From Escherichia coli (lineage in GTDB: Bacteria; Pseudomonadota; Gammaproteobacteria; Enterobacterales; Enterobacteriaceae): DNA of 64,000 bases. Positions within the stretch are counted from its first letter, which is position 1. Each line of letters begins with the position of its first letter. Location: NCBI RefSeq assembly GCF_045037415.1, contig NZ_CP173438.1. One strand, written 5' to 3'. Positions 506-18,358 of the stretch are shown here, one piece after another. The position numbers were made by a program, and so were the translations under genes. The notes below the pieces were generated by a model, which made no database searches, was not told where the DNA came from, and saw only the letters and a program-made list of their open reading frames with translations.

Positions 506-3376
506 TTATATTTTTTCCAGCGCGGTGAGTATTTTCTCCGGTGTGAAATGCCATTCGCGTAACCAGATGCCGCAGGCATCGTGAATTGCGGTAGCAATCG
601 CCGGAGCTGCGCCATTTACACCGATTTCCGAGATCGATTTCGCCCCGAATGGGCCGACTTTATCGTCGCTCGGCACCAGCACAGCGCGGAAATCACGCGG
701 AATGTCACCAATTTTCGGTGCGCCGTAACTGCGTAAATCACGCGTTAACGGGTGACCTTCGGCGTCATAAATGATCTCTTCGCTCATACTGTGGCCGATA
801 GCACGCAGGGTGGCACCGTAGATTTGTCCCAACGCTAACTCTGGATTGACCGGTGTACCGCAGTCCAGCAAGGCGTAGAATTTATCCAGGCGGATTTCAC
901 CCGTACGCGTGTTGACGGCAACTTCAGCGAAGTTTGCGCCATACGGGAAGGCGAAATCAGGTGTGATATAACTGCCAGTTCCCACCAGTGAACCAAAGCC
1001 GGTGCCGGTTTCGCCTTTATGGGCTATCTCTCCGAAACTAACTTCGCCTTTCTTGCCGCGAACGACGCCCGGCGTTGCTAGTTGAACATCTGCCACTGGC
1101 TCACCCAATATTTGCGCGCCGTGGAACAGGATTTTCTCCCGCAGATTTTCCGCTGCCAAACGCGCAGCGTTACCCGAGAAGCAAGTACCGGACGAGGCAT
1201 ATGCGCCTTTATCAAACAGTGCATGATCGGTATCACCAGAGATAACATGCACGTCCTGCGGTGGGCAGTGCAGCACTTCTGCTGCCAGTTTGGTCACCAC
1301 AGTATCCAGACCAGTACCAATATCCGCACCACCGGAATGAACGATAAAGGTGCCATCCGATTCCAGTTTGATCATGCAGTTAGCCTGATCGATATCCGGG
1401 ATACCCGATTTCTGCATGATAATGGCGACGCCGCGACCGATGTGCCAGTCACCATTTTGCGGTTTTGGTGAAGACCATTGGATCATCTCGCGACCCTGAC
1501 GCAGGATCTCTTCCAGTGCGCAGCTGGCGGCGGAAGGAACGGAGGTCGGCGCTTTACCTTCACCGATTGCACCGAGAATTTTCAGCTCTTGCCCTTCGTG
1601 TACCCGGTTACGTTCGATAATTTCCAGTTGGTCGATCTGTAACTGTTCAGCCAGTTCCGCTAATGCCATGGTGATAGCGAAGTTACCTTTCGGTGCGCCA
1701 TAACCCTGATAAGCACCATTTGGGCAAATGTTGCTGTAGTAGGTGGTGACCTGAAAATCGACGTTATCGCATGGATATAACGGCAGCGACAGCGCCGGTC
1801 CGTTACACGGTACGGTGAGTGAGTGGTTACCGTAAGGACCCGTGTTGGCGCGGAAATCCATCTTCACTGCCGTCAGGCGACCATCTTTTTTCGCGCCCAG
1901 TTTGACGGTGACTTTCGCGACGTGACGAGAGGTGTTAGCAATAAACTCTTCTTCACGGGTGTAGCGGAAAAGTACCGGACGCCCGGTCACGCAGGTTGCC
2001 CAGGCGCACACTTCTTCCAGCAGGATGTCCTGTTTGGAACCAAAACCGCCGCCAACTCGCTCTTTAATGACATGAACTTTATGCTGTTTCATGCCCACGA
2101 GGCGCGCGACCTGGCGGCGTAAGTGCCATGGTACCTGGGTGGAGGCGTGGATCACCAGACGATCGCCGTCCATACGGGTAAAGCAGATATGTGTTTCAGT
2201 CGGGCACTGCTGTGCCTGCGTTGAATTATAGGTTCGCTCAATGATCACATCGGCATCGGCAAAGCCTTTGTCCATATCGCCAATATGACCATGAATACTG
2301 GCGGCGATATTTTTGCGTGGGCGAGAACCGATCGGGAAGTTGATGATCATATGCTCGCCGCGCTGGGCTGCATGGCTGTTATCATCTTCCAGAGTATCTG
2401 GCGCACCAGCAACATACACCACCGGTTCATCGTGCACGACAGGCGCATCTTCCGCCATTGCCTCGTCAATCGACATTACCGGCTTAAGCACTTCATATTC
2501 AACGTCGATGAGCTTCAGTGCTTCGAGCGCAATGTCTTCACTTTCGGCTACTACCGCAGCAACGCGATCGCCGACGTGACGCATTTTCTTGCCGAACATT
2601 CGGCGGTCAAGCGGTGACGGTTCCGGTGCGCTCTGACCACCCGGGGTATAGTAAATATCCGGGCAATTCAGGTGAGTAATAACGTGAACGACGCCCGGTA
2701 AGGCTTCAGCTTTGCTGACATCCAGATGAGTAATCAGTGCGTGAGCGTGTGGGCTACGTAACATTTTAATGACGCAGGCGTCAGCCGTTACGCGATCTTC
2801 AACATAGCAGGGTTTCGCCTGCACCATTTTCGCGGCATCAGTTTTAGGATAATGCTTGCCAATGACTTCAAGGTCGTCACGGAAAGTCGGAGCGATATCA
2901 ATGGTGGCCTGCGGATTATTTTTACGTGCAACCGCCAGTTCAATGACCTGATAGTATTGCTGCCAGCCAGCATCGCGGCTAAACAGACCTGAGAGTGCGT
3001 CGTCGATCTCTTCGCGGGTAGGTGCGTCGATGCGATCGAGAAGATCGGTGATAATCAGAGCCGCAGCTGGATCGTTATAACCAGACTGCACCACGCCAAC
3101 ATCAACCATGGCCTGTTGAACCAGACTTAACTCATTCCATTTGCCCAGAGATTCTGCGGTACGAATATCTGCCTTCTCTAACTGTGCGGCGATAAGCAAG
3201 GACGCGTTAACGATATTACCGTTAAAGATAATTGCGTCAGAACCGGCAAACCCAAAGCCATCATCACTGTTGCGTACAGAGTGCATTCCCATGTTAAACA
3301 ACAGCTTTTGCACGTTTTCGCCTGGATTAACGGTTAGCTCCTGAGGCGCGCCATTTAAAGTAAAGTGGATGATCAT
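506..3376 (-). CDS. xdhD: Molybdenum hydroxylase large subunit fused to a degenerate (Cys-less) ferredoxin-like N-terminal region; putative selenium-dependent purine hydroxylase XdhD (YgfN)
   Basis: 956-aa ORF, full-length match to my memory of E. coli XdhD. It is paralogous to XdhA in this window (aldehyde oxidase/xanthine dehydrogenase Mo-binding domains) and overlaps ygfM by 4 nt. Confidence 0.95.
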   Translation of the reverse strand: MIIHFTLNGAPQELTVNPGENVQKLLFNMGMHSVRNSDDGFGFAGSDAIIFNGNIVNASLLIAAQLEKADIRTAESLGKWNELSLVQQAMVDVGVVQSGYNDPAAALIITDLLDRIDAPTREEIDDALSGLFSRDAGWQQYYQVIELAVARKNNPQATIDIAPTFRDDLEVIGKHYPKTDAAKMVQAKPCYVEDRVTADACVIKMLRSPHAHALITHLDVSKAEALPGVVHVITHLNCPDIYYTPGGQSAPEPSPLDRRMFGKKMRHVGDRVAAVVAESEDIALEALKLIDVEYEVLKPVMSIDEAMAEDAPVVHDEPVVYVAGAPDTLEDDNSHAAQRGEHMIINFPIGSRPRKNIAASIHGHIGDMDKGFADADVIIERTYNSTQAQQCPTETHICFTRMDGDRLVIHASTQVPWHLRRQVARLVGMKQHKVHVIKERVGGGFGSKQDILLEEVCAWATCVTGRPVLFRYTREEEFIANTSRHVAKVTVKLGAKKDGRLTAVKMDFRANTGPYGNHSLTVPCNGPALSLPLYPCDNVDFQVTTYYSNICPNGAYQGYGAPKGNFAITMALAELAEQLQIDQLEIIERNRVHEGQELKILGAIGEGKAPTSVPSAASCALEEILRQGREMIQWSSPKPQNGDWHIGRGVAIIMQKSGIPDIDQANCMIKLESDGTFIVHSGGADIGTGLDTVVTKLAAEVLHCPPQDVHVISGDTDHALFDKGAYASSGTCFSGNAARLAAENLREKILFHGAQILGEPVADVQLATPGVVRGKKGEVSFGEIAHKGETGTGFGSLVGTGSYITPDFAFPYGANFAEVAVNTRTGEIRLDKFYALLDCGTPVNPELALGQIYGATLRAIGHSMSEEIIYDAEGHPLTRDLRSYGAPKIGDIPRDFRAVLVPSDDKVGPFGAKSISEIGVNGAAPAIATAIHDACGIWLREWHFTPEKILTALEKI

Positions 3377-4152
3377 ACGGCTTCCTCCCCAGCCTGTTGG
3401 CAGTCGGCATACAGGTCGGCTACCAGAACTCCCGTGATATAGCGTTTATAGGCCACGCTGCCCCGCAAATCTTCCTGCGGGAAAATGGCGTTGGCGACAG
3501 CCTGTTCCAGTGCATTGCCTTCCAGATTTTGAGTTTCAACATCATGCAGACGCAGTGCTTTACTGGCGACGCCATCCAGCGCAATTCGCATACCGTCGTG
3601 GTCTGTTATTGCAACGGCTGCCGTCACGACGGTTAAACCTGCCTGAGAACGGCTAATTTTGCGAGTCGCACAGGTGCGATACGGATCTTTAATGATAATT
3701 TCGGTTAACAGGCGATCGCATGGGCAGGCCAGGTAGTCCTCGATTGACAGCGTTTCGCCGTTGCCAAAAACCAGTTCAGCATCCAGTGCCAGCAGGACGG
3801 GAAGCAGCACTGACTCTTCTTGCCGGGCGGCAATTTCACCACCAATGGTCGACTGATTACGAACATGGCGAGAGTAGACAAAACCGAGAGCTTCCCGCAG
3901 TGCTGCAGGAATAAATCGCGCATCACGCAGTGGCTGCAAGCGAGACATTGCGCCAATTCGTAGTGCACCGTTATCCCAGTCAATCCAGTCCAGCTCCAGA
4001 TCCTGCAAGGAAATGGCAATCTTTTTATCGGTACGGGTTGGTGTAGCGTTGAGTTTGCTGCCCCCGGCGAACCAGACGGCTTCATCCTGGTAGCGGCGCT
4101 TCAGTTCCAGCGCCTGTTCGACAGAGTCGGGTCTGAAAAATTGTTCAATCAT
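3373..4152 (-). CDS. ygfM: FAD-binding subunit of a molybdenum hydroxylase (CO dehydrogenase flavoprotein-like) YgfM
   Basis: 259-aa ORF resembling XdhB/CoxM FAD-binding subunits (AGGSKL..., GGEIA motifs). It is translationally coupled to xdhD. Confidence 0.9.
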   Translation of the reverse strand: MIEQFFRPDSVEQALELKRRYQDEAVWFAGGSKLNATPTRTDKKIAISLQDLELDWIDWDNGALRIGAMSRLQPLRDARFIPAALREALGFVYSRHVRNQSTIGGEIAARQEESVLLPVLLALDAELVFGNGETLSIEDYLACPCDRLLTEIIIKDPYRTCATRKISRSQAGLTVVTAAVAITDHDGMRIALDGVASKALRLHDVETQNLEGNALEQAVANAIFPQEDLRGSVAYKRYITGVLVADLYADCQQAGEEAV

Positions 4153-4202: not shown

Positions 4203-5531
4203 TTATGCCAGCGCATCCATCCGACGCCACATACTGGCAGCGGCTTTTCTGGCTTGCGCATAAATGGAATCGCAATCGAAGTTAAACTGACGGTCTTCAT
4301 AGACCATCACACCATTGACCATCACGCTGTGAACGCTACCTGAGCCCATACCGAAAGCGATATGCCCGGCGATATTGTCTGCCAGCAGCGGCGTCGGCGA
4401 GTTGTAATCGCAAATGGTTAAATCGGCTTTGTAACCGGCTTCCAGAAGCCCAAATTTCGCGCCAAAGTTGCGGCTCATCAGTTCGTTGCCGTTAGCCAGT
4501 GCTTTGGCAAAACTGTCAGGCCACAGCGGGCCACCCGCATCGCGATGTTTAAAGAAGGCAAATTTCATCTCTTCAAACATGTCCGAACCAATGCCGTCCG
4601 TTCCCAACGCCAGATTGCGGATGTCGCTAAGGTGATGGTTGTAGCCGACATGGTTGTTCATGTTTGAACGGGCGTTATGCACCAGGAACGCATCGCGCTG
4701 ATTGAGTAGGACGATGTCATCTTTCGACAGGTACAGCCCATGAGCGACCAGCGTTTTGCTGTCGATGAGATCGAATTGCGCAAGTCGTGCCAGCAGGTCT
4801 TTGCCGTACCAATGGTGACTGTAGGAAACGTCGTAAAGGTCTTCCGCAACGTGAATATGCAAACCACGACCTGTGCTTTTCACGGCTTCACGCAGCATCT
4901 CCAGACCGGCATCCGGCACGGTAAACGGCGCGTGAGCGCCGATATGTGCTTCCACCAGATACGGCTCGGTTGCTGCTTTCTTCGCCTCATCAATCTGACG
5001 GGTGAAGCGGATGTTTTCTTCTACACCTTCCTGCAACTCTTTGATGCCGTTGTTACGGTCAGTAGTTTCAAAACAGGTCATCGCGCGCAGGCCAACTTTT
5101 AAAAATGCGTTGCGCAATGTGGAGAGCGACCCGTCGATATACGCCGGAGAGGCATGGTGATCGATAACCGATGTACATCCGCTCTTAATCGCTTCCAGGG
5201 AACAAATCAGTCCGCTGTAATAGAGCGACTCTTCATCAAGAGCGCGATCGAGCCGCCACCAGAGATTTTTCAGCGTTGAGATGAAATCCGGGCAGGGGGC
5301 GATGTTTGCCATAATTCCGCGGGAAAGCCCCGAGTAAAAATGGTTGTGCGAGCAGACAATTCCCGGCATCACAATCCGACCATGCATCTCTTTGTAGCTG
5401 GCATCGGGGTAGCGTTGCGTCAGGGCATCGCCGATAGCGACAATCACATCATTTTCGATGGCGATATCAACGCCTTCCTGCACTTTCGCCGGGTGTAACT
5501 GCACTGCGGTGACATTCTTCAGAATCAACAT
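4203..5531 (-). CDS. ssnA: Amidohydrolase-superfamily protein SsnA (aminohydrolase/deaminase-like)
   Basis: 442-aa ORF with the HxH metal motif (CSHNHFYSG) typical of the guanine/cytosine-deaminase-like amidohydrolase fold. Recognised as E. coli SsnA. Its start codon lies 3 nt after the ygfK stop. Confidence 0.95.
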   Translation of the reverse strand: MLILKNVTAVQLHPAKVQEGVDIAIENDVIVAIGDALTQRYPDASYKEMHGRIVMPGIVCSHNHFYSGLSRGIMANIAPCPDFISTLKNLWWRLDRALDEESLYYSGLICSLEAIKSGCTSVIDHHASPAYIDGSLSTLRNAFLKVGLRAMTCFETTDRNNGIKELQEGVEENIRFTRQIDEAKKAATEPYLVEAHIGAHAPFTVPDAGLEMLREAVKSTGRGLHIHVAEDLYDVSYSHHWYGKDLLARLAQFDLIDSKTLVAHGLYLSKDDIVLLNQRDAFLVHNARSNMNNHVGYNHHLSDIRNLALGTDGIGSDMFEEMKFAFFKHRDAGGPLWPDSFAKALANGNELMSRNFGAKFGLLEAGYKADLTICDYNSPTPLLADNIAGHIAFGMGSGSVHSVMVNGVMVYEDRQFNFDCDSIYAQARKAAASMWRRMDALA

Positions 5532-5533
5532 GA

Positions 5534-8500
5534 TTACACCTCCACGCGGCCCAGCAGATAATGATGATGCTGGTGGACATGGCTAATGATGCGGCACATA
5601 TCGTTCAGCTCCGGTGGTACGTTGTTGAACTGACCTTCGCTGTCGATGTTTAACACCCAGCTTTGGTTATTCAGACGTACGCGTACCCGGCAATCTTCCA
5701 CAAGGAAGCCTGGGTTACTGCTGTTATCAAAGTCTTGCGACAGGCTGAAGACGGTGATTTTGTCTTTGTACGGTTTACCGTTCCACGGGCAGAATTGGGC
5801 GCAGTTGCCGCATTCGTTGCAGTAGGCATCGAGATGCAGCGTCTGGAAACGGTTCTGGAAGCCAGGAACCGCAATGGATACGTTGGCGCGGTTCGGGCAG
5901 ACATCCACACACTTGCTGCAAACGTAGTTACATTCAAGGCAGCGTGCGGCTTCCTGTGCGACAAACGCGTCACGATCGTCACTGTTCACCAGAGTGACAG
6001 AGATATCGCCTTTACGTTGATAGATTTCCGCCGGATTTACGTTGTTCCAGTATTTATCGTTCTGGTGGGAACGGATATTTTCCCGACTAAGGATGGTATC
6101 GGTCGCCCGACGCGCGGTTCCGACAGCAGCGACAATGGAGGATGGTCCGCGCTGTACGTCGCCGATCATAAAGACGTCAGTCAGACGCGTTTCGCCATTA
6201 TGGTCGACGTCTGGCCAGCCGTTTTTGTCCAGCGGCACGCCCATCGCATTCAGGGCTTCAGTATCCTGCTGTTCACCAATGGCGGTGATCAGACTGTCCA
6301 CATGCAGTGTTACTGTTTCGTTGGTTTCAACCGGACGGCGACGACCTTTCTCATCAGGTTCGCCAAGCGACATAACGCGCAAGGTTAAGGTGCCATCAGC
6401 ATCGAAACGTTCCGGATTATTCAGAAAACGGAACTCCACGCCGTCGTGCAACGCTTCTTCATACTCTTCGCGCCATGCGGGCATTTCTTGCAGTGAACGA
6501 CGGTAAACGACCGTTGCTTTTTCTACGCCTGGAACGCGTAACGCCGCACGAGCGCAGTCCATTGCGGTGTTACCCGCCCCGACAACGACCACATGTTTGC
6601 CCAGCTTGAGCGCGGTGCCCTTGTTGTATTCACGCAGGAAAGGGAGTGATTTCCAGACATTTTGGTTGTCGCCCGCCAGTTTCACACCGCTATTTTTATC
6701 AGTGCCGGTGGCAATCAGAACATAGTGGAAGCCCTGATTTTTTAACTGTTCAACGGTCAAATCGGGTGAGCAACCGTACTCAAATTTCACGCCGTGAGCG
6801 GCAACAAAATCGATATCGTGCTGAATTAACTCTGCAGGAATACGGAACTGAGGAATGATATTTTTCACCACGCCGCCCGCATTGGCTTCGCGTTCAAACA
6901 GCGTGACCGGATGGCCCGCTCTGGCAAGGAAGTAACCTGCGGCCAGACCCGCCGGACCTGCACCAATCACGGCTACCGGATGGCGTGAACCGGAACCGGC
7001 TGGTTTGTGCCAGCGTTGCTTATATTCATCCCAACCTTTTTCCAGGGCGACTTTTTTCAGTTCGCGGATATTCAGCGCACTGTCGTAATCCAGGCGGGTA
7101 CAGTTGTATTGGCACTGGTGATCGCAAATATGACCGGTAATGGCGGGCAGGGCGTTGCGTTGATAGATGAGTTCCAGCGCGTCGGCATAGCGGTGTTCGC
7201 CAAGCAGACGGATGTATTCCGGAATATCTTGCTTGATAGCGCAGGCAGTAACACAGGGGGCAACGTAGCAATCGGTCAGCGGCAGGTCTTCAGCCACTTC
7301 AATACGCTCTTCTGGCTTCCAGTGTTTCTGGGTGTATTCCATGGTTAACGCGTCTGCTGCCAGTCTGTTCAGTCGTTCGACGTCAACGTGGTTAAGCTCC
7401 CAGGCGTCGGAGCCTTCCAGCTCGCGCATGCAGGCACTTAAGCGCAGATAGCCGCCAGGTTTCAGCAGGTCGGTTGCCATAGTAATAGGGCGAATACCAG
7501 TATCAAAAATATCGCGGATAGTCAGCTGACTGGCACCACCGGAATAAGAAATGGGCAGTTTGCCGTCAAAGGCGCGAGAGAGAACTGCTGCAACGTTGAT
7601 GGAGAGCGGGAACAGCGCACGGCCTGACATATACATCTCTTCACCGGGCAGTGCGCCTTTATTGTTGATGGTGCCGAGAGTGTTAGTCAGTTTTACGCCA
7701 AAGCCGAGTGATTTTTCTTTTGCCAGTGCCATCAGGCGTTCCAGCATTTCCAGTGCTTGCGTCAGCTTGAGGTCGTGATCAAATGACTCTTCTTTTAAGC
7801 CGATGTAACCGAAACCGCAGACATCGAGGATCTCACGAACACGCGCGTACCCCAGTAAGGTCGGGTTGAGTTTCACAAAGGTGTTGAGTCCTTTTTCTTC
7901 CAGCATGTAGCGGCAAATGGCTTCGATTTCATGCGGAGGACAGCCGTGCATGGTGGAGAGGGTAACACCTTGTACCATGCTGGTGGGGATGCGAGCGGGT
8001 AAGGCTTGCAAGCTTTCGCGTTTTTCCTGCAATCCGTGGCGGGCTAAAAATGCCTCATCCTGGAGTAGCTTATTAAGTGCATCGCGGTATTGAGCGAATT
8101 TCGGATGGTCAGATGCGTCCATCATATTGTCGATGAACTGCTGCATCGGCGGTTGCTTAATACCTTCGAGGTTGTAACCGACGCTCATATTAAAGATGAA
8201 CGATTTACCGGAATCAGAAGGCTGGAACATCGCTTCGAGAAGGTGCAGGGCAAACCAGGCTTTGAGGTATTCATCCCAGGCTTTAAGCAGGGTAAATTCG
8301 GTAGACCATTCGGTGTTAAAGCACTCGTCTTCGGCATCGATACAGGGCTTTTCCAGCTCCAGACGGTCAAGAATTTGGACGGTTTTTAGTTCGATGAAGC
8401 GTCCGCCAGTCAGCCAGGAAGTGACAATATTTTGCGCGAGTTGCGTGTGCGGGCCAGCGGCAGGGCCGACGGGAGTGGCACAGGTTTCACCGAAGACGCT

Positions 8501-8632
8501 AACAGTTTTACTTTTTACGGGTGAGTAAAACTGTTGCTCGGGAATACCAAAGATTGAGCGTTGTTGTTGGTATTCATCAAATATGCGCGTCAAAAGTTCC
8601 TCAAACGGAATGGGACGCATAATATCCCCCAT
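5534..8632 (-). CDS. ygfK: Large Fe-S flavoprotein YgfK: N-terminal DPD/PyrD-like barrel + GltD/PreT-like NAD(P)H/FAD module + C-terminal 2x[4Fe-4S] ferredoxin
   Basis: 1032-aa ORF. It contains dinucleotide folds VAVIGAGPAGLAAG and VVVVGAGNTAMD, the GltD-like Cys cluster CYVAPCVTAC...CDHQCQYNC, and the C-terminal motifs CSKCVDVCP and CNECGNCAQFCP. Recognised as E. coli YgfK. Confidence 0.95.
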   Translation of the reverse strand: MGDIMRPIPFEELLTRIFDEYQQQRSIFGIPEQQFYSPVKSKTVSVFGETCATPVGPAAGPHTQLAQNIVTSWLTGGRFIELKTVQILDRLELEKPCIDAEDECFNTEWSTEFTLLKAWDEYLKAWFALHLLEAMFQPSDSGKSFIFNMSVGYNLEGIKQPPMQQFIDNMMDASDHPKFAQYRDALNKLLQDEAFLARHGLQEKRESLQALPARIPTSMVQGVTLSTMHGCPPHEIEAICRYMLEEKGLNTFVKLNPTLLGYARVREILDVCGFGYIGLKEESFDHDLKLTQALEMLERLMALAKEKSLGFGVKLTNTLGTINNKGALPGEEMYMSGRALFPLSINVAAVLSRAFDGKLPISYSGGASQLTIRDIFDTGIRPITMATDLLKPGGYLRLSACMRELEGSDAWELNHVDVERLNRLAADALTMEYTQKHWKPEERIEVAEDLPLTDCYVAPCVTACAIKQDIPEYIRLLGEHRYADALELIYQRNALPAITGHICDHQCQYNCTRLDYDSALNIRELKKVALEKGWDEYKQRWHKPAGSGSRHPVAVIGAGPAGLAAGYFLARAGHPVTLFEREANAGGVVKNIIPQFRIPAELIQHDIDFVAAHGVKFEYGCSPDLTVEQLKNQGFHYVLIATGTDKNSGVKLAGDNQNVWKSLPFLREYNKGTALKLGKHVVVVGAGNTAMDCARAALRVPGVEKATVVYRRSLQEMPAWREEYEEALHDGVEFRFLNNPERFDADGTLTLRVMSLGEPDEKGRRRPVETNETVTLHVDSLITAIGEQQDTEALNAMGVPLDKNGWPDVDHNGETRLTDVFMIGDVQRGPSSIVAAVGTARRATDTILSRENIRSHQNDKYWNNVNPAEIYQRKGDISVTLVNSDDRDAFVAQEAARCLECNYVCSKCVDVCPNRANVSIAVPGFQNRFQTLHLDAYCNECGNCAQFCPWNGKPYKDKITVFSLSQDFDNSSNPGFLVEDCRVRVRLNNQSWVLNIDSEGQFNNVPPELNDMCRIISHVHQHHHYLLGRVEV

Positions 8633-8711
8633 AACCCTCTCCTTAGCTTATACAGATATCATTGAGTGACCGGTGTTGAGAAATCCGGTGGTTTAGGGGG
8701 ATAGAGCAACA

Positions 8712-8731
8712 ATCGCACCACTCTTGCCAGG
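8712..8731 (-). promoter_or_regulatory. Candidate sigma54 (-24/-12) promoter for ygfK-ssnA-ygfM-xdhD
   Basis: The minus strand reads cCTGGCAAGAGTGGTGCGa. GG and GC have the correct GG-N10-GC spacing of TGGCAC-N5-TTGCW. The site is about 85-100 nt upstream of the ygfK ATG, and a sigma54 activator gene (ygeV) lies in the cluster. Confidence 0.35.
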
Positions 8732-8953
8732 TTTGACGGGAAATATAAAAAAATGTGAGGCGGCTCGAAACTTAATGGCTTTTTGTGAATGAACTCACAG
8801 GTGCCAAATGAGAATTAAAATCACTCCTGAAAATTATTATTGCCAGCCCATTTATCACTTTTTCTCTTTTCTCAAAATCAGTGATTCCTTATCATTATGA
8901 TAAAGAGTGCTGGAGGGATTAAATATTTGAACGCAATCGTTTAACTACGTTTT

Positions 8954-9532
8954 CTAAATTTCAGTATACCTTTTCTTCGCTGTAATAAAGTCGTCCGGAG
9001 TATCAATATCTAAAATTATTTCTGCATTTTCTATTTCGACGGAATAATGTTCTCCCATAAGGAGTGCCTGACGCATATTGGTGACATTGGGGCGCTGGAT
9101 TGCCTGCATCAGGCATGGTTTTGACACTAAAATCGGATGGCCGGGGATGCCATTATGGAGTGGCAGTATTGCGCCATCATTTCGTAACGACCAGATTTTT
9201 CTAAAAATATCGATGGTGAGGGTTGGCATATCTCCGTGGGTGAGAAAACAATGTTCTGTTTGCACCGCGGGTACTGCGGCCTTTACTGATGTCAGTAAAC
9301 CCTGCGCATAATCTGGGTTGTGGATAATAGTGATATTGCTCTGGTTCGCATAACGTTCGTGCAGTTCATTACCACGATAGCCGGTGACTAAAATAATTCG
9401 GCTACAAAACTGCAACGCATTTTTGATACTTGTATCAAGAATTGTTCCCTGTTGCCAGGGTAACATCATTTTCCATTGCCCCATTCTTGATGATAATCCT
9501 GCGGCGGTAATTATACAGTCGATGGCTGACAT
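8954..9532 (-). CDS. mocA: Molybdenum cofactor cytidylyltransferase MocA (YgfJ)
   Basis: 192-aa ORF with a MobA-like nucleotidyltransferase N-terminus (IITAAGLSSRMG). Recognised as E. coli MocA, which makes the MCD cofactor used by xanthine-dehydrogenase-family enzymes. Confidence 0.93.
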   Translation of the reverse strand: MSAIDCIITAAGLSSRMGQWKMMLPWQQGTILDTSIKNALQFCSRIILVTGYRGNELHERYANQSNITIIHNPDYAQGLLTSVKAAVPAVQTEHCFLTHGDMPTLTIDIFRKIWSLRNDGAILPLHNGIPGHPILVSKPCLMQAIQRPNVTNMRQALLMGEHYSVEIENAEIILDIDTPDDFITAKKRYTEI

Positions 9533-9635
9533 AGTGATTCCATTATTTACAGGAGCTAATAACGCCTGATAATTGCGTTACTTCCTGATGGATTACGTTG
9601 AGGGTAATTTATCCCAGAGAGGTCCATAAAGACGC

Positions 9636-10406
9636 GTGAAAAGTATAATTGACCCATCGGCATTATTCATTGATTTAGGCGCGCAGAAACGTCCCACTGT
9701 GATTTCTATTGTTGGTGCTGGGGGGAAAACCAGCTTGCTTTTTTGGCTGGCAGAACTGTTCCAGGCGAGTGGCAGGCGTGTATTAATCACTACGACGACA
9801 CATATGTTTATGCCAACATCTCACTGGCCCGTGGTTTTCTGTCGTGATCCCGCCATGCTTCCTCATGCGTCTTTTATATCCCCCATTTCATTTTGTTTTC
9901 ACTGCTGGAAAGCGAACCAGGGAAAAGTGCAGGGATTTACGCCAGAAGCGATTGATGCACTGGTACAACGACCAGAGTGTGACGTAATTCTCATTGAGGC
10001 AGATGGCTCGCGTGGAATGCCGTTAAAAGCGCCTGATGAGCACGAACCTTGCATACCTAAAAGCAGTTGCTGCGTGATTGCTGTGATGGGAGGACATATT
10101 TTGGGTGCGAAAGTGAGCACAGAAAATGTCCATCGCTGGTCGCAGTTTGCTGATATTACTGGGTTAACACCTGATGCACCCTTGCAACTGAGCGATCTCG
10201 TTGCGCTGGTTCGCCACCCTCAGGGCGCGTTTAAAAACGTACCGCAAGGTTGTCGGCGAGTCTGGTTCATTAACCGTTTTTCTCAATGTGAGAATGCGAT
10301 TGCGCAAAGCGAGCTCCTTCAACCGCTGCAACAACACAACGTAGAGGCAATCTGGCTGGGCGATATACAAGAACATCCTGCAATCGCGCGCAGATTTGTG
10401 AATTAG
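9636..10406 (+). CDS. yqeC: Probable selenium-dependent hydroxylase accessory protein YqeC (P-loop NTPase)
   Basis: 256-aa ORF with a GTG start and Walker A motif VGAGGKTSLL. Recognised as E. coli YqeC. Confidence 0.9.
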   Translation: MKSIIDPSALFIDLGAQKRPTVISIVGAGGKTSLLFWLAELFQASGRRVLITTTTHMFMPTSHWPVVFCRDPAMLPHASFISPISFCFHCWKANQGKVQGFTPEAIDALVQRPECDVILIEADGSRGMPLKAPDEHEPCIPKSSCCVIAVMGGHILGAKVSTENVHRWSQFADITGLTPDAPLQLSDLVALVRHPQGAFKNVPQGCRRVWFINRFSQCENAIAQSELLQPLQQHNVEAIWLGDIQEHPAIARRFVN

Positions 10407-12119: not shown

Positions 12120-13052
12120 TTACTGACAAATCACCGTTCCGGTTTTGCCTTCAATCCCTTCTTTCGCTTTGCTCAATACGGTAATCAGTGCTTCACGACC
12201 TGCGCGAGAGCGAGCAAACGAGGCGGCAGCTTCCACTTTAGGCAGCATAGAACCTTTCGCAAAATGACCTTCTTCGATAAAGCGTTCAGCATCACTTAAT
12301 GACAGGCGATCGAGCCACTGTTCATTCTCTTTTCCGAAGTTAATGGCCACTTTTTCTACCGCAGTCAGAATGATCAGCATATCGGCATCGATCATTTCTG
12401 CTAAACGGGCACTGGCCCAGTCTTTATCGATAACCGCGCTGGCACCACGCAGATGGTTACCTTCACGAATAACAGGGATACCACCACCGCCAACGGTGAT
12501 CACCACCTGTCCGGCATCTACCAGAGCTTTAACCGTTTCTTTTTCAATGATATCAACCGGTTTTGGCGAAGCAACGACACGACGATAGCCGCGACCCGCA
12601 TCTTCTTTCAGAGTGTAACCCTGTTTTGTCAGTAGCTCTGCTTCTTGCTCGGTAAAGAACGAACCAATCGGCTTGGTCGGGTTGAGGAATGCCGGATCGT
12701 TAGCATCGACTTCGACCTGGGTAACCAGCGTTGCTACAGGTTTATTAATGCCACGAGAAAGCAGTTCTTCTCTTAAGGCGTTTTGTAGATCGTAACCAAT
12801 ATAACCCTGGCTTAAGGCAACACAGACAGACATCGGCAGCATTGGCGAGTGCGCTTCAGTTTTTGCGGCAGCTTCAAAGGCCTGGTTAATCATGCCCACC
12901 TGTGGCCCGTTGCCATGAGTGACGATGACCTCATGTCCCTGGGCAATTAAATCAACAATTGCCTGAGAAGTAATTTTTACCGCTTTCATTTGTCCGGCCA
13001 GGTCATCGCCCAGCGCATTCCCGCCCAGGGCGAGAACAATTTTCTTACTCAT
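12120..13052 (-). CDS. yqeA: Carbamate kinase-like protein YqeA
   Basis: 310-aa ORF with a carbamate kinase family N-terminus (KIVLALGGNAL...HGNGPQVG). Recognised as E. coli YqeA. Confidence 0.95.
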   Translation of the reverse strand: MSKKIVLALGGNALGDDLAGQMKAVKITSQAIVDLIAQGHEVIVTHGNGPQVGMINQAFEAAAKTEAHSPMLPMSVCVALSQGYIGYDLQNALREELLSRGINKPVATLVTQVEVDANDPAFLNPTKPIGSFFTEQEAELLTKQGYTLKEDAGRGYRRVVASPKPVDIIEKETVKALVDAGQVVITVGGGGIPVIREGNHLRGASAVIDKDWASARLAEMIDADMLIILTAVEKVAINFGKENEQWLDRLSLSDAERFIEEGHFAKGSMLPKVEAAASFARSRAGREALITVLSKAKEGIEGKTGTVICQ

Positions 13053-13099
13053 TTTTCCTCACTCATCATTCTTGATTGTGTATAGATCCCTGGCAGTGG

Positions 13100-14485
13100 T
13101 TAGAGCACGGGAGGGACAAACGGTTTGCGTCGCAGGAAACGACCTCGCCCGGCTTTGCCTGTAAAGGTGCCGTCGCAGAAAATCGTTTCACCACGGGATA
13201 AGGTTCTGACAATCGCGCCCTGACAGGTAAAACCCTCCCATGGCGAGTAGTCAGCGTTGTCGTGGAGATGGCGATGCTGAATTTGTTGGCTCTGACGTGG
13301 GTCTATAATCACCACGTCGCCATCGGAACCGGGCGCTAATAATCCTTTTTGTGGCCACAGGCCAAACAGCCTGGCGGGCATTGCACTGGTTAACTCAACA
13401 AAACGCTCCGGTGAGATACGCCCCGTCATCACGCCACTGGAGAACAGCAGTTGCATGCGGTTCTCCACACCGGGTAAGCCATTTGGGCAGCGGCTGAAAT
13501 CGCCTTTAGAAATTTGCAGGCGTTGAGCCATCGAGAAGGTGCAGTGATCGGTTGCCACCACGTCAATCGCACCATCGCTGATGCCACACCACAGTTTGTC
13601 CTGCTCGCGTACGTTACGCAGCGGTGGGCTAAGAATGAACTTCATGCCATCTTCTGTATCGTAACTGCGTTCGTCCAACAGGAGATATTGTGGGCAGGTT
13701 TCAACCCAGACTGGCTGGTGATTCGCACGGGCAAGACGCAGATAATCCAGACCTAAGCCGTTAGACAGGTGCACGATATAGAGCGGGGCGTTACCGGCAA
13801 TTTGTGCCAGGTTAATCATGCGGGCGATGGCTTCCGCTTCGCATTCCAGAGGTCGACTCAAGGCATGATAACGCGGCGCGGTTAACCCTGCGGCGATAAA
13901 CTCCGCCCGCTTGCTGGCGATAGCTGCGTCATTTTCCGGGTGCACGGTGGTCAGCGCGCCGGACTCATGCAAGCGGCGTAATGCCTGCAACACTTCATCA
14001 TCGTTGAGTTTATATTGATAGGTTAAATAGAGTTTAAAACTGCTCAGTCCTTCCTCAACCATCATCGGAATTTCGTCGAGGATAGCGTGATTAATATGTT
14101 GAATGACACCGTGAAAGCTGTAGTCGATGACTGCTTTGTGGGCGGCATAACCGCGATAAACTTCCAGTTGATGGCGTAACCGGCAGCCATTTGGGCCAAA
14201 TCCCATATGGTCAATAATGGTTGTTGTACCGCCACACGCAGCTGCGCGGGTACCGGTAAAAAAATCATCACAACTGCGCGCGATGCCGACATCAATATTG
14301 AAATGCGTATGGACATCCACGCCGCCAGGGAAAACGTAACAGCCAGAGGCATCAATTTCTTCGCAAGGGAGTTGCGGCGAAATATCGGTACCCAACTGGC
14401 GAACAATCCCGCTTTCAATCAGCAAATCCTGCTTCGCCTGTCCATCTGCATTAACAACAATGCCGTTTTTTATCAATACGCGCAT
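13100..14485 (-). CDS. hyuA: D-phenylhydantoinase / dihydropyrimidinase-family cyclic amidohydrolase HyuA (YgeZ)
   Basis: The track ORF is 465 aa from a TTG. I take the ATG at 14485 (MRVLIKNGIVV..., 461 aa), which is preceded by GGAG. The HxH motif GGVDVHTHF is present. Recognised as E. coli HyuA. Confidence 0.93.
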   Translation of the reverse strand: MRVLIKNGIVVNADGQAKQDLLIESGIVRQLGTDISPQLPCEEIDASGCYVFPGGVDVHTHFNIDVGIARSCDDFFTGTRAAACGGTTTIIDHMGFGPNGCRLRHQLEVYRGYAAHKAVIDYSFHGVIQHINHAILDEIPMMVEEGLSSFKLYLTYQYKLNDDEVLQALRRLHESGALTTVHPENDAAIASKRAEFIAAGLTAPRYHALSRPLECEAEAIARMINLAQIAGNAPLYIVHLSNGLGLDYLRLARANHQPVWVETCPQYLLLDERSYDTEDGMKFILSPPLRNVREQDKLWCGISDGAIDVVATDHCTFSMAQRLQISKGDFSRCPNGLPGVENRMQLLFSSGVMTGRISPERFVELTSAMPARLFGLWPQKGLLAPGSDGDVVIIDPRQSQQIQHRHLHDNADYSPWEGFTCQGAIVRTLSRGETIFCDGTFTGKAGRGRFLRRKPFVPPVL

Positions 14486-14495
14486 AGCAAACTCC

Positions 14496-14520
14496 AAAAA
14501 CCCTCCGGTGAACCGGAGGG
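14496..14520 (-). terminator. Intra-operon intrinsic terminator/attenuator-like hairpin between ygeY and hyuA
   Basis: The minus strand reads CCCTCCGG-ttca-CCGGAGGG followed by TTTTT, and this runs directly into the hyuA Shine-Dalgarno GGAG. Confidence 0.55.
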
Positions 14521-14537
14521 GAATAAGTGAAGAGTAA

Positions 14538-15749
14538 TTATTCGGTTGCCAGCCAGCTTAATGGGATTGCAGCGTACATAGCGGCACAGGTTACCAGGTG
14601 AGATTTCCAGGTTTTTTCGTTTGGCGCGTGCGCTTCCGGTTCTTTACCGGGGCCAAAACCGATGACCGGAATGCCGTGGCGACCCATGATGGATACGCCA
14701 TTAGTCGAGAAGGTCCACTTATCAACGACAGGCGCTTTACCAAACAGCCCTTCATAAGCATTCACCAGTGCTTTAACGGTGAAGTGATCTTCTTCCACTT
14801 TCCAGGTCGGGAAGTAGCATTCGGTTGGGTAAACCAGGCCAGTCCAGGACGGGCGGTCGTAGTTGTACATAGAAACGACAGCATTCGCTTTTTGTACTGC
14901 AGGCAGGGCACGGATCTCGTCCAGCGCGCCTTCCCAGGTTTCGCCCCAGGTCAGACGACGGTCGATTGAAACTGCGCAGCTGTCTGCGACAGCGCAACGG
15001 CTTGGGGAGGTGAAGAAAATTTCAGAAACGGTGAGGGTGCCTTTGCCGAGGAATTCGTCATAACCCAGACGTTGGGAGAGTTCTTGTAATTCGCCAAGAA
15101 TCGGACCCATTTTGAAAATGGCGTTATCACCGCGTTCTGGTGCCGAACCGTGGCAGCTAACACCCTGAACATCAATACGAATTTCCATACGACCGCGTTG
15201 ACCACGGTATACCTGGCAGTCGGTTGGTTCGGTACTGACCACAAATTCCGGGCGAATGCCGGATTGTTCAATAATGTACTGCCAGCACAGGCCGTCGCAG
15301 TCTTCTTCCTGCACAGTACCGGTAACCAGCAGGGTATATTCATCTTCCAGACCGAGATCTTTAATGATTTTACCGGCATATACCATAGACGCCATGCCGC
15401 CTTCCTGGTCGGAAGTACCACGACCACCGATCAGCTCGTCGGTTTCCATGCCTTCATACGGATCGAAGTCCCAGTTTTTGATGTTGCCAATGCCGACTGT
15501 ATCGATATGAGCGTCCATTGCCACCAGACGCGGGCCGTGGCCGATATAACCGAGAACGTTGCCCATTGGGTCGATTTCAACTTTATCGAAGCCGACTTTT
15601 TCCATCTCTTCTTTAATACGATGTACTACGCGTTTCTCGTCGCAGCTTTCACTGGGAATAGCAACCATATCGCGCAGGAAGCGAGTCATGTCTGCCTGGT
15701 AATCTTTTGCTTTTTCAAGAATCAGTTTGAATGGAATATTCTTAGCCAT
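14538..15749 (-). CDS. ygeY: M20-family (ArgE/DapE/CPG2-like) metallo-hydrolase YgeY
   Basis: 403-aa ORF with M20 peptidase motifs (AHIDTV, SDQEGG, GTVQEED). Recognised as E. coli YgeY. Confidence 0.95.
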
Positions 15750-15806
15750 TATTTTTCTCCAGATTTTTTACTCCCCGTTTTGCAGGGAGCAGTTCCAATA
15801 GGGTGA

Positions 15807-17003
15807 TTAAGGTGCTACAGCGTGTTTGCCTTCCCAGACAACTTCGCGGTAGTGCTTCACGTCGGTGTCGCCTTCAGTGCTGATAACCAGCACCACGGCA
15901 TCTTTGTTCAGCGCCAGTTTTTCCATCAGGCTTTGACGTTGCGGGTGATAATGAACCGCTGCGAGAACGCCCAAACCGACAGCGCCGGATTCACCGGAGA
16001 TGATGCGCGGGTCGTTGCCGTACGGATTACCCAGCACGCGCATACCTAATGCGGCAACGCTGTCCTGGCAGGAGATGAATTGGGTGGCGCAGTTACGTAG
16101 GATTTCCCAGCCCAGCGGGTTAGGTTCGCCGCAGGCCAGGCCCGCCATGATGGTGGCCATATCACCGCCAACGTTGACGATGTCGCCTTTGACGCCGGAG
16201 CGATAAATACAGTCAGCTTTGTCAGGTTCAACAATAATGCTGTGCAGATTTTGCGGGCTATAGACGTCGACCAGATAACCCAGCACACCACCGGCCATTG
16301 CACCGACACCTGCTTGCAGCAGAACGTGTGTCGGGGTTACGCCCATTTCACGCATTTGCTCGACGGCTTCATCCGCCAGTGTTGCGTAGCCTTGCATGAT
16401 CCAGGTTGGGATTTTGGTGTAACCTTCCCATGCCGTGTCCTGTACCACTTCCCAGCCGTGCTGCTGCGCGTGTTGCATGGTCAGGCGAACGGTATCGTCA
16501 TAGTTCATATCCGTGACGATGCACTCGGCACCGAGGTTTAGAATGGCGTCAACGCGTTCCTGAGCAGAACCTTTCGGCATGTAAATCACCGCATTCTGTC
16601 CGAGTTGCTGAGCGGCCCATGCCACACCGCGCCCGTGGTTGCCGTCGGTGGTGGTCGCGAAAGTCATTTTTTCGCCAATGGCATTTTTCAGGTGCTCAAA
16701 TGATAGCGTTTCGATATCAAGATGATATTTTTCACACAATAATTGAGCGATGGCGTATGCGCCGCCGAGCATTTTGAAGGCGTTCAGACCGAAGCGTTTT
16801 GATTCGTCCTTAACGAGAATTTTCTTTACACCAAACAGGTTTGCGAGATCGTCCAGCGCACAAAGCGGTGTTGGGCGATAACCAGCAATTTTCTGGTGGA
16901 ACTGGCGTGCCAGTTTTGCCTGGCTTTGCGAAAAAAGCGGTGATGTTTCGCCGTTGAAAAATTTGTTATCGGCGATATCAATCTTTAATGAGAAAACGGA
17001 CAT
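15807..17003 (-). CDS. ygeX: PLP-dependent 2,3-diaminopropionate ammonia-lyase YgeX (DpaL)
   Basis: 398-aa ORF with the PLP-lysine context GLNAFKMLGG. Recognised as E. coli YgeX/DpaL. Confidence 0.95.
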   Translation of the reverse strand: MSVFSLKIDIADNKFFNGETSPLFSQSQAKLARQFHQKIAGYRPTPLCALDDLANLFGVKKILVKDESKRFGLNAFKMLGGAYAIAQLLCEKYHLDIETLSFEHLKNAIGEKMTFATTTDGNHGRGVAWAAQQLGQNAVIYMPKGSAQERVDAILNLGAECIVTDMNYDDTVRLTMQHAQQHGWEVVQDTAWEGYTKIPTWIMQGYATLADEAVEQMREMGVTPTHVLLQAGVGAMAGGVLGYLVDVYSPQNLHSIIVEPDKADCIYRSGVKGDIVNVGGDMATIMAGLACGEPNPLGWEILRNCATQFISCQDSVAALGMRVLGNPYGNDPRIISGESGAVGLGVLAAVHYHPQRQSLMEKLALNKDAVVLVISTEGDTDVKHYREVVWEGKHAVAP

Positions 17004-17060
17004 ATCCTATCCTTTTGGCCTCTGGAAATAGAGGGCCGACCAGCTGATCGGCCCGAGGGG

Positions 17061-18251
17061 TTATTTCACGCGTTCTTGCGCTTCTTTCAGCAGTTGCTCG
17101 AGCAGTGCACCTGGTTTGGCGTATTTACGGGACAGGATCATCGCGGCGATGATATAAGGCTTCCAGCTGGCTTCTTTGTAGGTAGCGATACGGTATTTTT
17201 CGAATACGCCTTCAGTCACTTCACCTTCTTTGCAGGATACGCCGCTGATATCAGCTGGCAGGCAGTGCATGTACAGGGCTTCGCCATCACGGGTCAGCTC
17301 CATCATCTCTTCGGTACAATGCCAGTCTTTGTGCTGTGCGTTCTGTGCCAGACACTGTTTTTCCAGCGCTTTCAGTCCTTCGTGATCGTTCGCACGCAGC
17401 AGTTCAGTACGCTCTTCCATCACTTTGTAAGGTGCCCAGGACTTCGGATAAACGATGTCTGCGTCTTTGAAGGCTTCTTCCATGCTGGTGACCTGACGGA
17501 AGCTACCACCGGAGGCTTTAGCATTGTTTTTAGCAACTTCAACGACATCCGGGATCAGGTCGTAGCCTTCCGGATGGGCCAGGGTGACATCCATACCGAA
17601 GCGGGTCATCAGACCGATGATGCCTTGTGGTACAGAGAGCGGTTTGCCATAGCTTGGGGAGTAGGCCCAGGTCATGGCGATTTTTTTACCTTTCAGGTTT
17701 TCCAGTGAACCAAAGTGTTCACGTAACCATGCCAGATCAGCCATTGATTGAGTCGGGTGGTCAATATCGCATTGCAGGTTCACTAAAGCCGGACGCTGCG
17801 GCAGCACACCCTGCTTGTAACCGTCATCAAGTGCAGCGCCAACTTCACGCATATAGGCGTTGCCTGCGCCCAGATACATATCGTCGCGAATACCGATAGC
17901 GTCAGCGCAGAAGGAGATCATATTGGCGGTTTCACGCACGGTTTCGCCGTGAGCGATTTGTGATTTACCTTCGTCAAGATCTTGTTGTGCAAGGCCGAGC
18001 AGGTTAAGCGCGGAAGCATAAGAGAAGCGGGTACGGGTGGAATTGTCGCGGAATACGGAAATACCTAATCCACTATTAAAGACTTTGGTTGAGATGTTTT
18101 CAGCACGCAGTGCTTTTAACGCGGCGGCAACGTCCAGTACTTGTTTCAGTTCGTCTGGCGTCTGTTCCCACGTTAACAAAAAATCTTTTTCATGCAGGTG
18201 AGAGGTCAGCGAATTGATATCCTTAATCAGCTCATTAACAGTTTTCATCAT
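17061..18251 (-). CDS. ygeW: Knotted carbamoyltransferase YgeW (ATCase/OTCase fold, physiological substrate unresolved)
   Basis: 396-aa ORF with the carbamoyl-phosphate binding STRTR motif (NSTRTRFS) and HCLP motif (MHCLPA). Recognised as E. coli YgeW. Confidence 0.95.
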   Translation of the reverse strand: MMKTVNELIKDINSLTSHLHEKDFLLTWEQTPDELKQVLDVAAALKALRAENISTKVFNSGLGISVFRDNSTRTRFSYASALNLLGLAQQDLDEGKSQIAHGETVRETANMISFCADAIGIRDDMYLGAGNAYMREVGAALDDGYKQGVLPQRPALVNLQCDIDHPTQSMADLAWLREHFGSLENLKGKKIAMTWAYSPSYGKPLSVPQGIIGLMTRFGMDVTLAHPEGYDLIPDVVEVAKNNAKASGGSFRQVTSMEEAFKDADIVYPKSWAPYKVMEERTELLRANDHEGLKALEKQCLAQNAQHKDWHCTEEMMELTRDGEALYMHCLPADISGVSCKEGEVTEGVFEKYRIATYKEASWKPYIIAAMILSRKYAKPGALLEQLLKEAQERVK

Positions 18252-18340: not shown

Positions 18341-18358
18341 TAACAATAAGTGTGCCAG
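18341..18358 (-). promoter_or_regulatory. Candidate sigma54 promoter for the ygeW-ygeX-ygeY-hyuA-yqeA operon
   Basis: The minus strand reads TGGCAC-actta-TTGTT, a perfect -24 element with correct spacing, but the -12 is TTGT rather than TTGC. It is about 95 nt upstream of the ygeW ATG. A second GTGCCA at 18301..18306 has a poorer -12. Confidence 0.25.

Follow-up and report, generated by a model that had tools for sequence, protein, structure and literature searches.

The purine cluster of Escherichia coli contains a gene, ygfK, whose product is named a putative selenate reductase subunit in databases and was predicted, from its letters alone, to be a circularly permuted single-chain dihydropyrimidine dehydrogenase (DPD). 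What does this protein do, and is it a rearranged DPD? The gene lies at positions 5534-8632, on the minus strand, of the window analysed here, a stretch of 64,000 nucleotides from E. coli contig NZ_CP173438.1 (assembly GCF_045037415.1). YgfK very probably serves the anaerobic (reductive) breakdown of uric acid as an NAD(P)H:2,8-dioxopurine oxidoreductase, with a DPD-like electron path and a fusion topology that is not a circular permutation of DPD. Its function has already been published in two 2025 studies (PMC12507026; bioRxiv 10.1101/2025.04.24.650524), the first of which also modelled it as DPD-like. The original prediction is largely right, has been overtaken by this literature, and describes the protein wrongly in the words "circularly permuted".

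Function in the uric acid pathway

The 1032-residue open reading frame (ORF), which begins with an ATG (ORF list and translation), is a genuine gene, E. coli ygfK. It is 100% identical to annotated ygfK, 5181 of the 5426 complete genomes of E. coli contain a match, and the product scores 1778.8 bits against TIGR03315 (Se_ygfK, the YgfK family; IPR017701), for which the cut-off is 835.3, over residues 2-1027.

As its substrate YgfK takes 2,8-dioxopurine, for which the names isoxanthine and yanthine are also in use. Mutants in ygfK of C. sporogenes and E. coli accumulate this compound, and E. coli YgfK, co-expressed with suf and purified anaerobically, selectively converts it out of a mix of xanthine isomers with NADPH (bioRxiv 10.1101/2025.04.24.650524). 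YgfK with reconstituted iron-sulphur (Fe-S) clusters, combined with SsnA and NAD(P)H, yields ureidomethyl-hydantoin, a product that a delta-ygfK strain lacks; in the preceding step, the molybdenum (Mo) hydroxylase XdhD/YgfM makes 2,8-dioxopurine from urate (PMC12507026, Life Metab 2025). The former study named the enzyme DOPOR and stated that what its N- and C-terminal domains do is not known (bioRxiv 10.1101/2025.04.24.650524), while modelling in the latter found YgfK to resemble pig PydA, i.e., DPD (PMC12507026). The original prediction had proposed that YgfK reduces a purine-derived ring, which both studies demonstrate, and one of them presents the pathway, as the prediction did, by analogy with reductive pyrimidine breakdown (PMC12507026). 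It is SsnA and not HyuA that opens the ring in direct coupling with YgfK. No report of pyrimidine (uracil or thymine) assays with YgfK was found.

In the mechanism proposed here, NAD(P)H would reduce flavin adenine dinucleotide (FAD) in a GltD/PreT-like module (residues 546-855), from which electrons would pass through two [4Fe-4S] clusters of a Fer4_20 domain (Cys455/460/464/503/507/511, probably together with Cys898), then through two C-terminal ferredoxin clusters (Cys901-912 and Cys938-948), and finally to flavin mononucleotide (FMN) in an N-terminal barrel. There, a hydride and a proton would be added to 2,8-dioxopurine across C5=C6 in its uracil-like ring, as DPD does with uracil; SsnA would draw off the reduced product and open its ring, pulling an unfavorable equilibrium. 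We infer the order of the electron path, as we do what Cys231 and Cys898 contribute and the course of evolution considered below. YgfK carries out the committed ring-reduction step of uric acid removal by gut bacteria, a process relevant to gout and hyperuricaemia.

The database name implies a different activity, in which YgfK would serve as the Fe-S/flavin subunit of a selenate reductase. RefSeq and TIGRFAM carry this name ("putative selenate reductase subunit YgfK"), which reportedly goes back to a genetic screen carried out in E. coli in 2002, and the neighboring yqeB and yqeC are annotated for biosynthesis of a selenium-dependent Mo cofactor. Yet selenate is neither needed by purified YgfK nor stimulates it, and the true substrate has been identified (bioRxiv 10.1101/2025.04.24.650524); moreover, Pfam finds no molybdopterin domain in YgfK, and the cluster is one for uric acid degradation. 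A role in selenate reduction, which the original prediction had also rejected, is thus highly improbable, and the name is a mis-annotation worth correcting. Two full-length orthologues (P0208 and P0213) are called "dihydrouracil dehydrogenase (NAD+)" in UniRef and "putative selenate reductase subunit" at NCBI; neither name suits the shown substrate.

Domain composition and order of YgfK

The coding sequence divides into five segments, all on the minus strand:

5534..8632 (-), ygfK coding sequence, 1032 codons plus the stop codon at 5534-5536
7298..8632 (-), residues 1-445, barrel of the dihydroorotate dehydrogenase (DHOD)/DPD type, (beta/alpha)8, presumed site of FMN and substrate
7037..7276 (-), residues 453-532, Fer4_20 domain (N-terminal Fe-S domain of DPD and GltD; PF14691, E 2.1e-16)
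6068..6997 (-), residues 546-855, dinucleotide-binding domains for FAD and NAD(P)H, GltD/PreT/NfnB type
5768..5956 (-), residues 893-955, the segment EAARC898LEC901 followed by a 2x[4Fe-4S] ferredoxin
5537..5767 (-), residues 956-1032, conserved C-terminal tail of four strands and a helix, present also in the short homologues described below

The N-terminal region had been likened to the barrels of DPD, PreA and PyrD (residues ~1-440); the likeness holds at the level of fold, to which standard sequence searches are blind. Structure prediction, one of the checks proposed with the original prediction, returns a barrel: the AlphaFold model of residues 1-445, built with 85 homologues, has a mean predicted local distance difference test score (pLDDT) of 92.9 and a predicted template modelling score (pTM) of 0.93, and its top 50 Foldseek matches are DPD and DHODH only (best E 2.5e-10). 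Among flavin TIM barrels, the fold has its closest likeness in the dihydroorotate and dihydropyrimidine dehydrogenases, at 13-18% identity to the DHOD and DPD barrels. Profile alignment with hhalign gave a weak, specific match between a profile of 119 family barrels and E. coli PreA (E 3.8e-4, probability 36%, 274 columns), as compared to a probability of 0.1% for a control flavin barrel, DusC; with a small profile, the probability was only 0.8%. The first half of the alignment to PreA is unreliable; in the second half, the YgfK segments VKLNP, KLTNT, MSGRA and ISYSGGA are paired with AKMTPN, AAINT, YSGKA and ISGIGGI of PreA and would correspond to the classical FMN and substrate motifs of the DHOD family. 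The barrel is about 150 residues bigger than DHOD; a helix is added at its N-terminus and further helices at its C-terminus (394-428), and between them come an extra loop (86-115) and a helical insert (155-214).

Conservation in the family marks out a set of barrel residues. Invariant or nearly so are K83, N106, E108, S226, T227, H229, C231, K254, N256, N317, T318, S336, G337 and G366; K83, N106/E108, K254/N256, N317/T318, S336/G337 and G365/G366 are kept (near-)invariantly in both long forms, built as E. coli YgfK is, and short forms, which have no GltD-like module. These residues are candidates for the FMN/substrate motifs expected of a DHOD/DPD-type barrel: a Lys after strand 2, an Asn-x-Glu loop, a Lys on strand 5, Asn-Thr on strand 6, Ser-Gly, and Gly-Gly on strand 7. 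C231 sits after strand 4 in the motif LSTMHGC231PP, and all but three of the 75 long forms and all but one of the 25 short forms have it; it is a candidate counterpart of the catalytic Cys671 of DPD.

The middle module is recognized readily, and the original prediction of a GltD/PreT-like unit with a cysteine cluster and two dinucleotide folds is confirmed by PF14691, PF07992 and PreT matches. The Fer4_20 match begins at profile position 25 of 113 and is followed by Pyr_redox_2 (PF07992, residues 552-839, E 1.2e-42). All the quoted motifs are found: CYVAPCVTAC at 455-464, CDHQCQYNC at 503-511, VAVIGAGPAGLAAG at 553-566 and VVVVGAGNTAMD at 681-692, with GAGPAG at 557-562 and GAGNTA at 685-690. 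The Fer4_20 cysteines 455, 460, 464, 503, 507 and 511 are invariant in all 75 long-form representatives. E. coli PreT aligns to YgfK 455-847 (30% identity, E 7e-46), its residue 29 onward pairing with the Fer4_20 region, and PDB sequences matched include NfnA (E 1.7e-70), GltD (E 2.9e-46), NfnB and DPD, of which the pig enzyme aligns through residues 63-499 to YgfK 436-843 (E 2e-30). The module is nearer to Nfn/GltD (30-34% identity; 31-34% for NfnA/NfnB) than to DPD (26%), and target-normalized Foldseek template modelling scores to NfnB and GltD are 0.76-0.77.

The two ferredoxin motifs expected at the C-terminus are both present, CSKCVDVCP at 905-913 and CNECGNCAQFCP at 938-949, with cluster cysteines 901/905/908/912 and 938/941/944/948. 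A Pfam scan of the whole protein gives weak Fer4 dicluster matches at residues 900-950; scanning just this segment gives stronger ones, to Fer4_7 at 898-951 and, above its gathering score, to Fer4_10. Outside the barrel, 15 cysteines are invariant in 75/75 long forms: 455, 460, 464, 503, 507, 511, 898, 901, 905, 908, 912, 938, 941, 944 and 948. In pig DPD, four clusters are ligated by 15 cysteines and one glutamine (Gln156), i.e., by the same number of cysteines. Cys898 is the extra residue: every one of the 75 long forms has it, and the short-form junctions listed show the ferredoxin cysteines alone, with no RCxxC cysteine. We infer that Cys898 would complete the proximal Fer4_20 cluster. The tail that follows matches nothing in Pfam; its residues 961-1020 are modelled with block pLDDT of 78-91, and it recurs in the short forms P0060 and P0118 and in matches to a tail hidden Markov model (HMM).

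All five DPD domain types are thus present in YgfK (N-terminal Fe-S, FAD, NADPH, FMN-type barrel and C-terminal 2x[4Fe-4S]), and what differs is their order. DPD runs from an N-terminal Fe-S domain (I) through FAD/NADPH (II/III) and barrel (IV) to ferredoxin (V), as seen in the 1H7W structure, and the separate matches of the YgfK module and barrel to DPD agree with this. In YgfK, the barrel (1-445) is followed by Fer4_20 (453-532), FAD/NAD (546-855), ferredoxin (898-951) and the 77-residue tail, which gives IV, I, II/III, V. The barrel-first order given in the original prediction is therefore correct. Had a single-chain DPD been circularly permuted, by tandem duplication and trimming, the sharing of five domain kinds and the swap of the barrel and the PreT-like part (436-843 resembling DPD 63-499, and 1-445 the DPD barrel) would be explained. 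However, the rotations of DPD are II/III, IV, V, I; IV, V, I, II/III; and V, I, II/III, IV, none of which is IV, I, II/III, V: since the ferredoxin is C-terminal in both proteins, the YgfK order is not any rotation of the DPD order. The low identity of the barrel to its DHOD and DPD counterparts, its invisibility to Pfam and the closer kinship of the middle module to Nfn/GltD than to DPD argue that the parts do not come from one DPD ancestor, and short barrel-ferredoxin homologues exist. A true circular permutant is accordingly a very remote prospect, and circular permutation of DPD is refuted by the domain order. YgfK is a transposition or a different fusion topology, with the same parts and logic as DPD. 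Foldseek searches with the full-length model aligned the GltD-like module alone, which is consistent with a non-collinear order.

Several results weigh against reading YgfK as a DPD-like 2,8-dioxopurine reductase. Pfam finds no match within residues 1-445, PF01180 (DHO_dh) has zero matches at E<=10 among 23 homologous N-domains, and neither phmmer nor profile hmmsearch against PDB sequences finds a DHOD or DPD match for the barrel; BLAST of the barrel against PreA likewise gave nothing significant. Because sequence-level proof failed, the barrel assignment relies on fold evidence: residues 1-445 are predicted to adopt a DHOD/DPD-type barrel, and the placement of FMN in the barrel and FAD in the middle module is suggested by fold and motifs. 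The hhalign registers around residues 224-233 disagree between alignments, and the mapping of Cys671 onto YgfK was abandoned because of this conflict. The full-length AlphaFold model has a pTM of 0.58 and pLDDT <50 over residues 856-953, likely a consequence of MAFFT placing the short forms' ferredoxin on the Fer4_20 region, and is unreliable for interdomain contacts, Cys898 and cluster geometry; the electron wire may run within one chain or, as in DPD, across a dimer. In the published assays, YgfK alone gave no detectable product without SsnA (PMC12507026), and the two studies disagree on the cofactor: NADPH only (bioRxiv 10.1101/2025.04.24.650524) vs. NAD(P)H, with NADH in the assay mix (PMC12507026). 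Neither reports the flavin content of YgfK (PMC12507026; bioRxiv 10.1101/2025.04.24.650524).

Short forms and the direction of evolution

When 1.84 billion representative proteins were searched with a family profile, 612 members came up at E<=1e-30, of which the best 150 (representative clusters), with a few added homologues, were classified using HMMs of five YgfK segments. A full-length alignment that included C-terminal fragments was discarded, the fragments being smeared along the whole protein. Among the 156 proteins classified, 95 are long, 25 are short and the rest are fragments; the barrel is N-terminal in every member, and none has the DPD order. In the short homologues (~550-620 residues), the barrel, 47-53% identical to that of E. 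coli YgfK, runs directly into the ferredoxin and tail without the GltD-like module. In P0118, residues 1-440 correspond to YgfK 1-455 and residues 440-543 to YgfK 899-996; P0060 is built alike. A "medium" class of ~800-940 residues (P0391, P0403, P0407, P0417, P0434, P0465, P0484, P0485, P0499, P0501, P0480 and P0490) has the barrel, Fer4_20 and ferredoxin, with the FAD/NAD match truncated or undetected; its members may do without an NAD(P)H-binding domain or may be gene-calling artefacts.

Three short-form loci were located:

L002, 10001-11722, P0118, on a 174-kb contig; genes resembling xdhD, ssnA and xdhABC and M20 and PALP genes adjoin
L004, 5302-7065, P0060, directly after an xdhD-like gene; M20 and OTCase genes are near
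L005, 3463-5187, P0120, between M20 and PALP genes

The short forms are real and belong to the uric acid pathway. Their probable activity is the reduction of 2,8-dioxopurine with electrons from ferredoxin, which would presumably feed them as proposed for clostridial PydAc and UacX; from UacX, which is of the PF01180 type, they are distinct. At the L002 locus, a uric acid cluster in a Bacillota metagenome-assembled genome, a Y1_Tnp (IS200-type) transposase gene lies at 9180-9953, directly upstream of P0118.

The points at which long and short forms diverge are stereotyped. The short-form junction reads LPLFDC-x2/3-C-x2-C-x3-CPNRAN; in long forms, the barrel side reads LPLFDC-x4-C-x3-CP and the ferredoxin side EAxRCLxC-x3-C-x2-C-x3-CPNRAN, and the GltD-like cassette therefore sits within the first cysteine motif of a PreA-like protein. 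On the ferredoxin side, QEAARCLEC (893-901) pairs with the PreT N-terminus KEASRCLLC (E 0.019, not significant), and residues 890-919 match Fer4_20 profile positions 16-43 (E 0.73, not significant and a hint only); the resemblance of QEAARCLEC to the usual N-terminal start of PreT, GltD and DPD is suggestive.

These junctions can be read in two directions. If the long form is ancestral, a DHOD-like barrel was fused to the N-terminus of a ready-made GltD-like plus ferredoxin protein (PRK12771/NF009410), and the short forms arose later by repeated in-frame deletion between similar cysteine motifs. A single NF009410 match takes in the whole of YgfK 446-950 (profile positions 36-557 of 566), which shows that GltD-like plus ferredoxin units occur as one module. 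On a neighbor-joining tree of the barrels, short forms turn up in many places, Fitch parsimony counting 14 changes and a long root state, and several have a long form as their closest relative (P0401/P0389 at 64% identity, P0477/P0484 at 55%). P0401 even retains the linker of the long-form C-junction (GDGRRLSC vs. GDGFRCLSC), with the extra cysteine replaced by arginine. However, the tree is crude, being built from distances between sequences that share 40-55% identity and without support values, and most short forms carry the N-junction LPLFDC, which is compatible with either direction; the long ancestor thus falls a little short of an even call. Alternatively, a short PreA-like barrel-ferredoxin protein came first, and recombination with a circular or tandem copy placed a GltD/PreT-like cassette inside its first cysteine motif, so that the cassette, not the enzyme, was circularly permuted and EAxRCLxC now stands at the cassette's C-terminal end. 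The long-form junctions do split the short-form cysteine motif, the Fer4_20 match starts at profile position 25 while positions 16-43 reappear weakly at residues 890-919, the PreT start resembles QEAARCLEC, and Cys898 is universal in long forms with no RCxxC cysteine at the listed short-form junctions. Yet these motif matches are short and statistically non-significant, RCxxC could be simply the start of the ferredoxin, and the tree favors a long ancestor, which makes the short ancestor unlikely. On balance, the evidence tilts to a long ancestor from which the cassette was lost repeatedly.

With either direction, YgfK would not be a rearranged DPD gene, because its barrel is only 13-18% identical to DHOD/DPD barrels and its cassette is nearer to Nfn/GltD. 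A more elaborate view can be held only tentatively: YgfK-type enzymes may be an independently assembled DPD analogue in which a PreA-like barrel-ferredoxin protein took up a permuted cassette at its first cysteine motif and lost it again in several lineages, with Cys898 completing the proximal cluster and the short forms acting as ferredoxin-dependent 2,8-dioxopurine reductases outside the published surveys.

Because the function of YgfK and its likeness to DPD were published in 2025, the finding opens no new question. The text searched in the two studies mentions neither a permutation nor short forms (PMC12507026; bioRxiv 10.1101/2025.04.24.650524). The short forms in uric acid clusters, the junction anatomy and the count of 15 cysteines with Cys898 are modest additions for which no earlier description was found. 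The remaining value lies in three points: the wiring, with a cassette between barrel and ferredoxin and not a circular permutation; the cassette-less short forms, which predict ferredoxin-driven variants; and Cys231 and Cys898, which are targets for mutagenesis.

Genomic setting and likeness to known systems

Annotation places the known ygeV-xdhD purine cluster within the window:

506-3376 (-), xdhD, Mo hydroxylase together with ygfM (annotation)
3373-4152 (-), ygfM, Mo hydroxylase together with xdhD (annotation)
4203..5531 (-), ssnA, amidohydrolase (ORF list, annotation and the coupled assay in PMC12507026)
between ygfK and yqeA, mocA, yqeC and yqeB, listed in this order (annotation)
12120..18251 (-), yqeA, hyuA, ygeY, ygeX and ygeW (annotation and both 2025 papers)
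18727-20505 (+), ygeV, encoding a sigma-54 activator, with xdhCBA listed after it

The immediate downstream neighbor of ygfK is ssnA, which starts 2 nucleotides past the ygfK stop codon (5534-5536 vs. 5531); the two genes, for the reductase and for the hydrolase acting on what it makes, are likely translationally coupled. The products of yqeA, hyuA, ygeY, ygeX and ygeW carry out later steps, i.e., hydantoin opening, ureido removal, and diaminopropionate lyase and carbamate kinase reactions (PMC12507026; bioRxiv 10.1101/2025.04.24.650524). The original prediction had set ygfK next to hyuA and ygeY; they do share a cluster, but lie 4.5-6 kb upstream, and the adjoining gene is ssnA.

A scan of the window for sigma-54 (-24/-12) promoters gave 67 matches, many of them weak, vs. 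47 expected, and two were kept as leads only, for their intergenic position. One candidate, TGGCACACTTATTGTT, with one mismatch, lies at 18342-18357 (-), ~90 nucleotides upstream of ygeW; the other, TGGCAAGAGTGGTGCG, overlapping TGGTGCGATTGTTGCT, lies at 8705-8739 (-), ~75-105 nucleotides upstream of ygfK.

No ygfK match is found in 245 of the 5426 complete E. coli genomes. Truncated YgfK products, 97-100% identical, are abundant in E. coli and Shigella records, among them the clusters P0204 (806 residues, 1196 members), P0008 (355 residues, 288 members), P0065 (248 residues, 427 members) and P0242 (290 residues, 328 members, Shigella sonnei). The truncations could reflect frequent pseudogenization, e.g., in Shigella, or fragmented assemblies.

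Among known systems, the electron-input modules of the GltD/NfnB/SudA type and PRK12771 (NF009410) are the best sequence and fold matches for YgfK 446-950, although YgfK scores 346.9 bits against NF009410, below the cut-off of 516, and lacks the usual N-terminal start of a GltD-type module, having the barrel in that place. DPD (pig and human PydA; PDB 1H7W/1GT8) reduces uracil or thymine, whereas YgfK reduces 2,8-dioxopurine; the loop after strand 4 is long and mobile and bears Cys671 in DPD, whereas in YgfK it is the short LSTMHGCPP. Set against the order I, II/III, IV, V of DPD, the IV, I, II/III, V arrangement of YgfK comes with a barrel only ~17% identical to that of DPD, ~150 extra barrel residues, a failure to match PF01180 and a 77-residue C-terminal tail that DPD does not have.

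In E. coli, PreT is the counterpart of YgfK 455-847, and PreA, whose barrel is followed by 2x[4Fe-4S] at the C-terminus, is built like the short forms. PreT and PreA are made as separate chains, whereas YgfK has its PreT-like unit flanked by the two halves of a PreA-like one, the barrel before it and the ferredoxin after it. Clostridial PydAc and C. difficile UacX (PMC12507026) resemble the short YgfK forms: they combine an FMN barrel with Fe-S clusters in the absence of an FAD/NADPH module, sit in uric acid or pyrimidine clusters, and are presumably fed by reduced ferredoxin. By contrast, UacX is described as a homologue of PydA with PF01180, which neither YgfK nor the 23 homologous N-domains match; the short YgfK forms are a separate lineage that does the same job.

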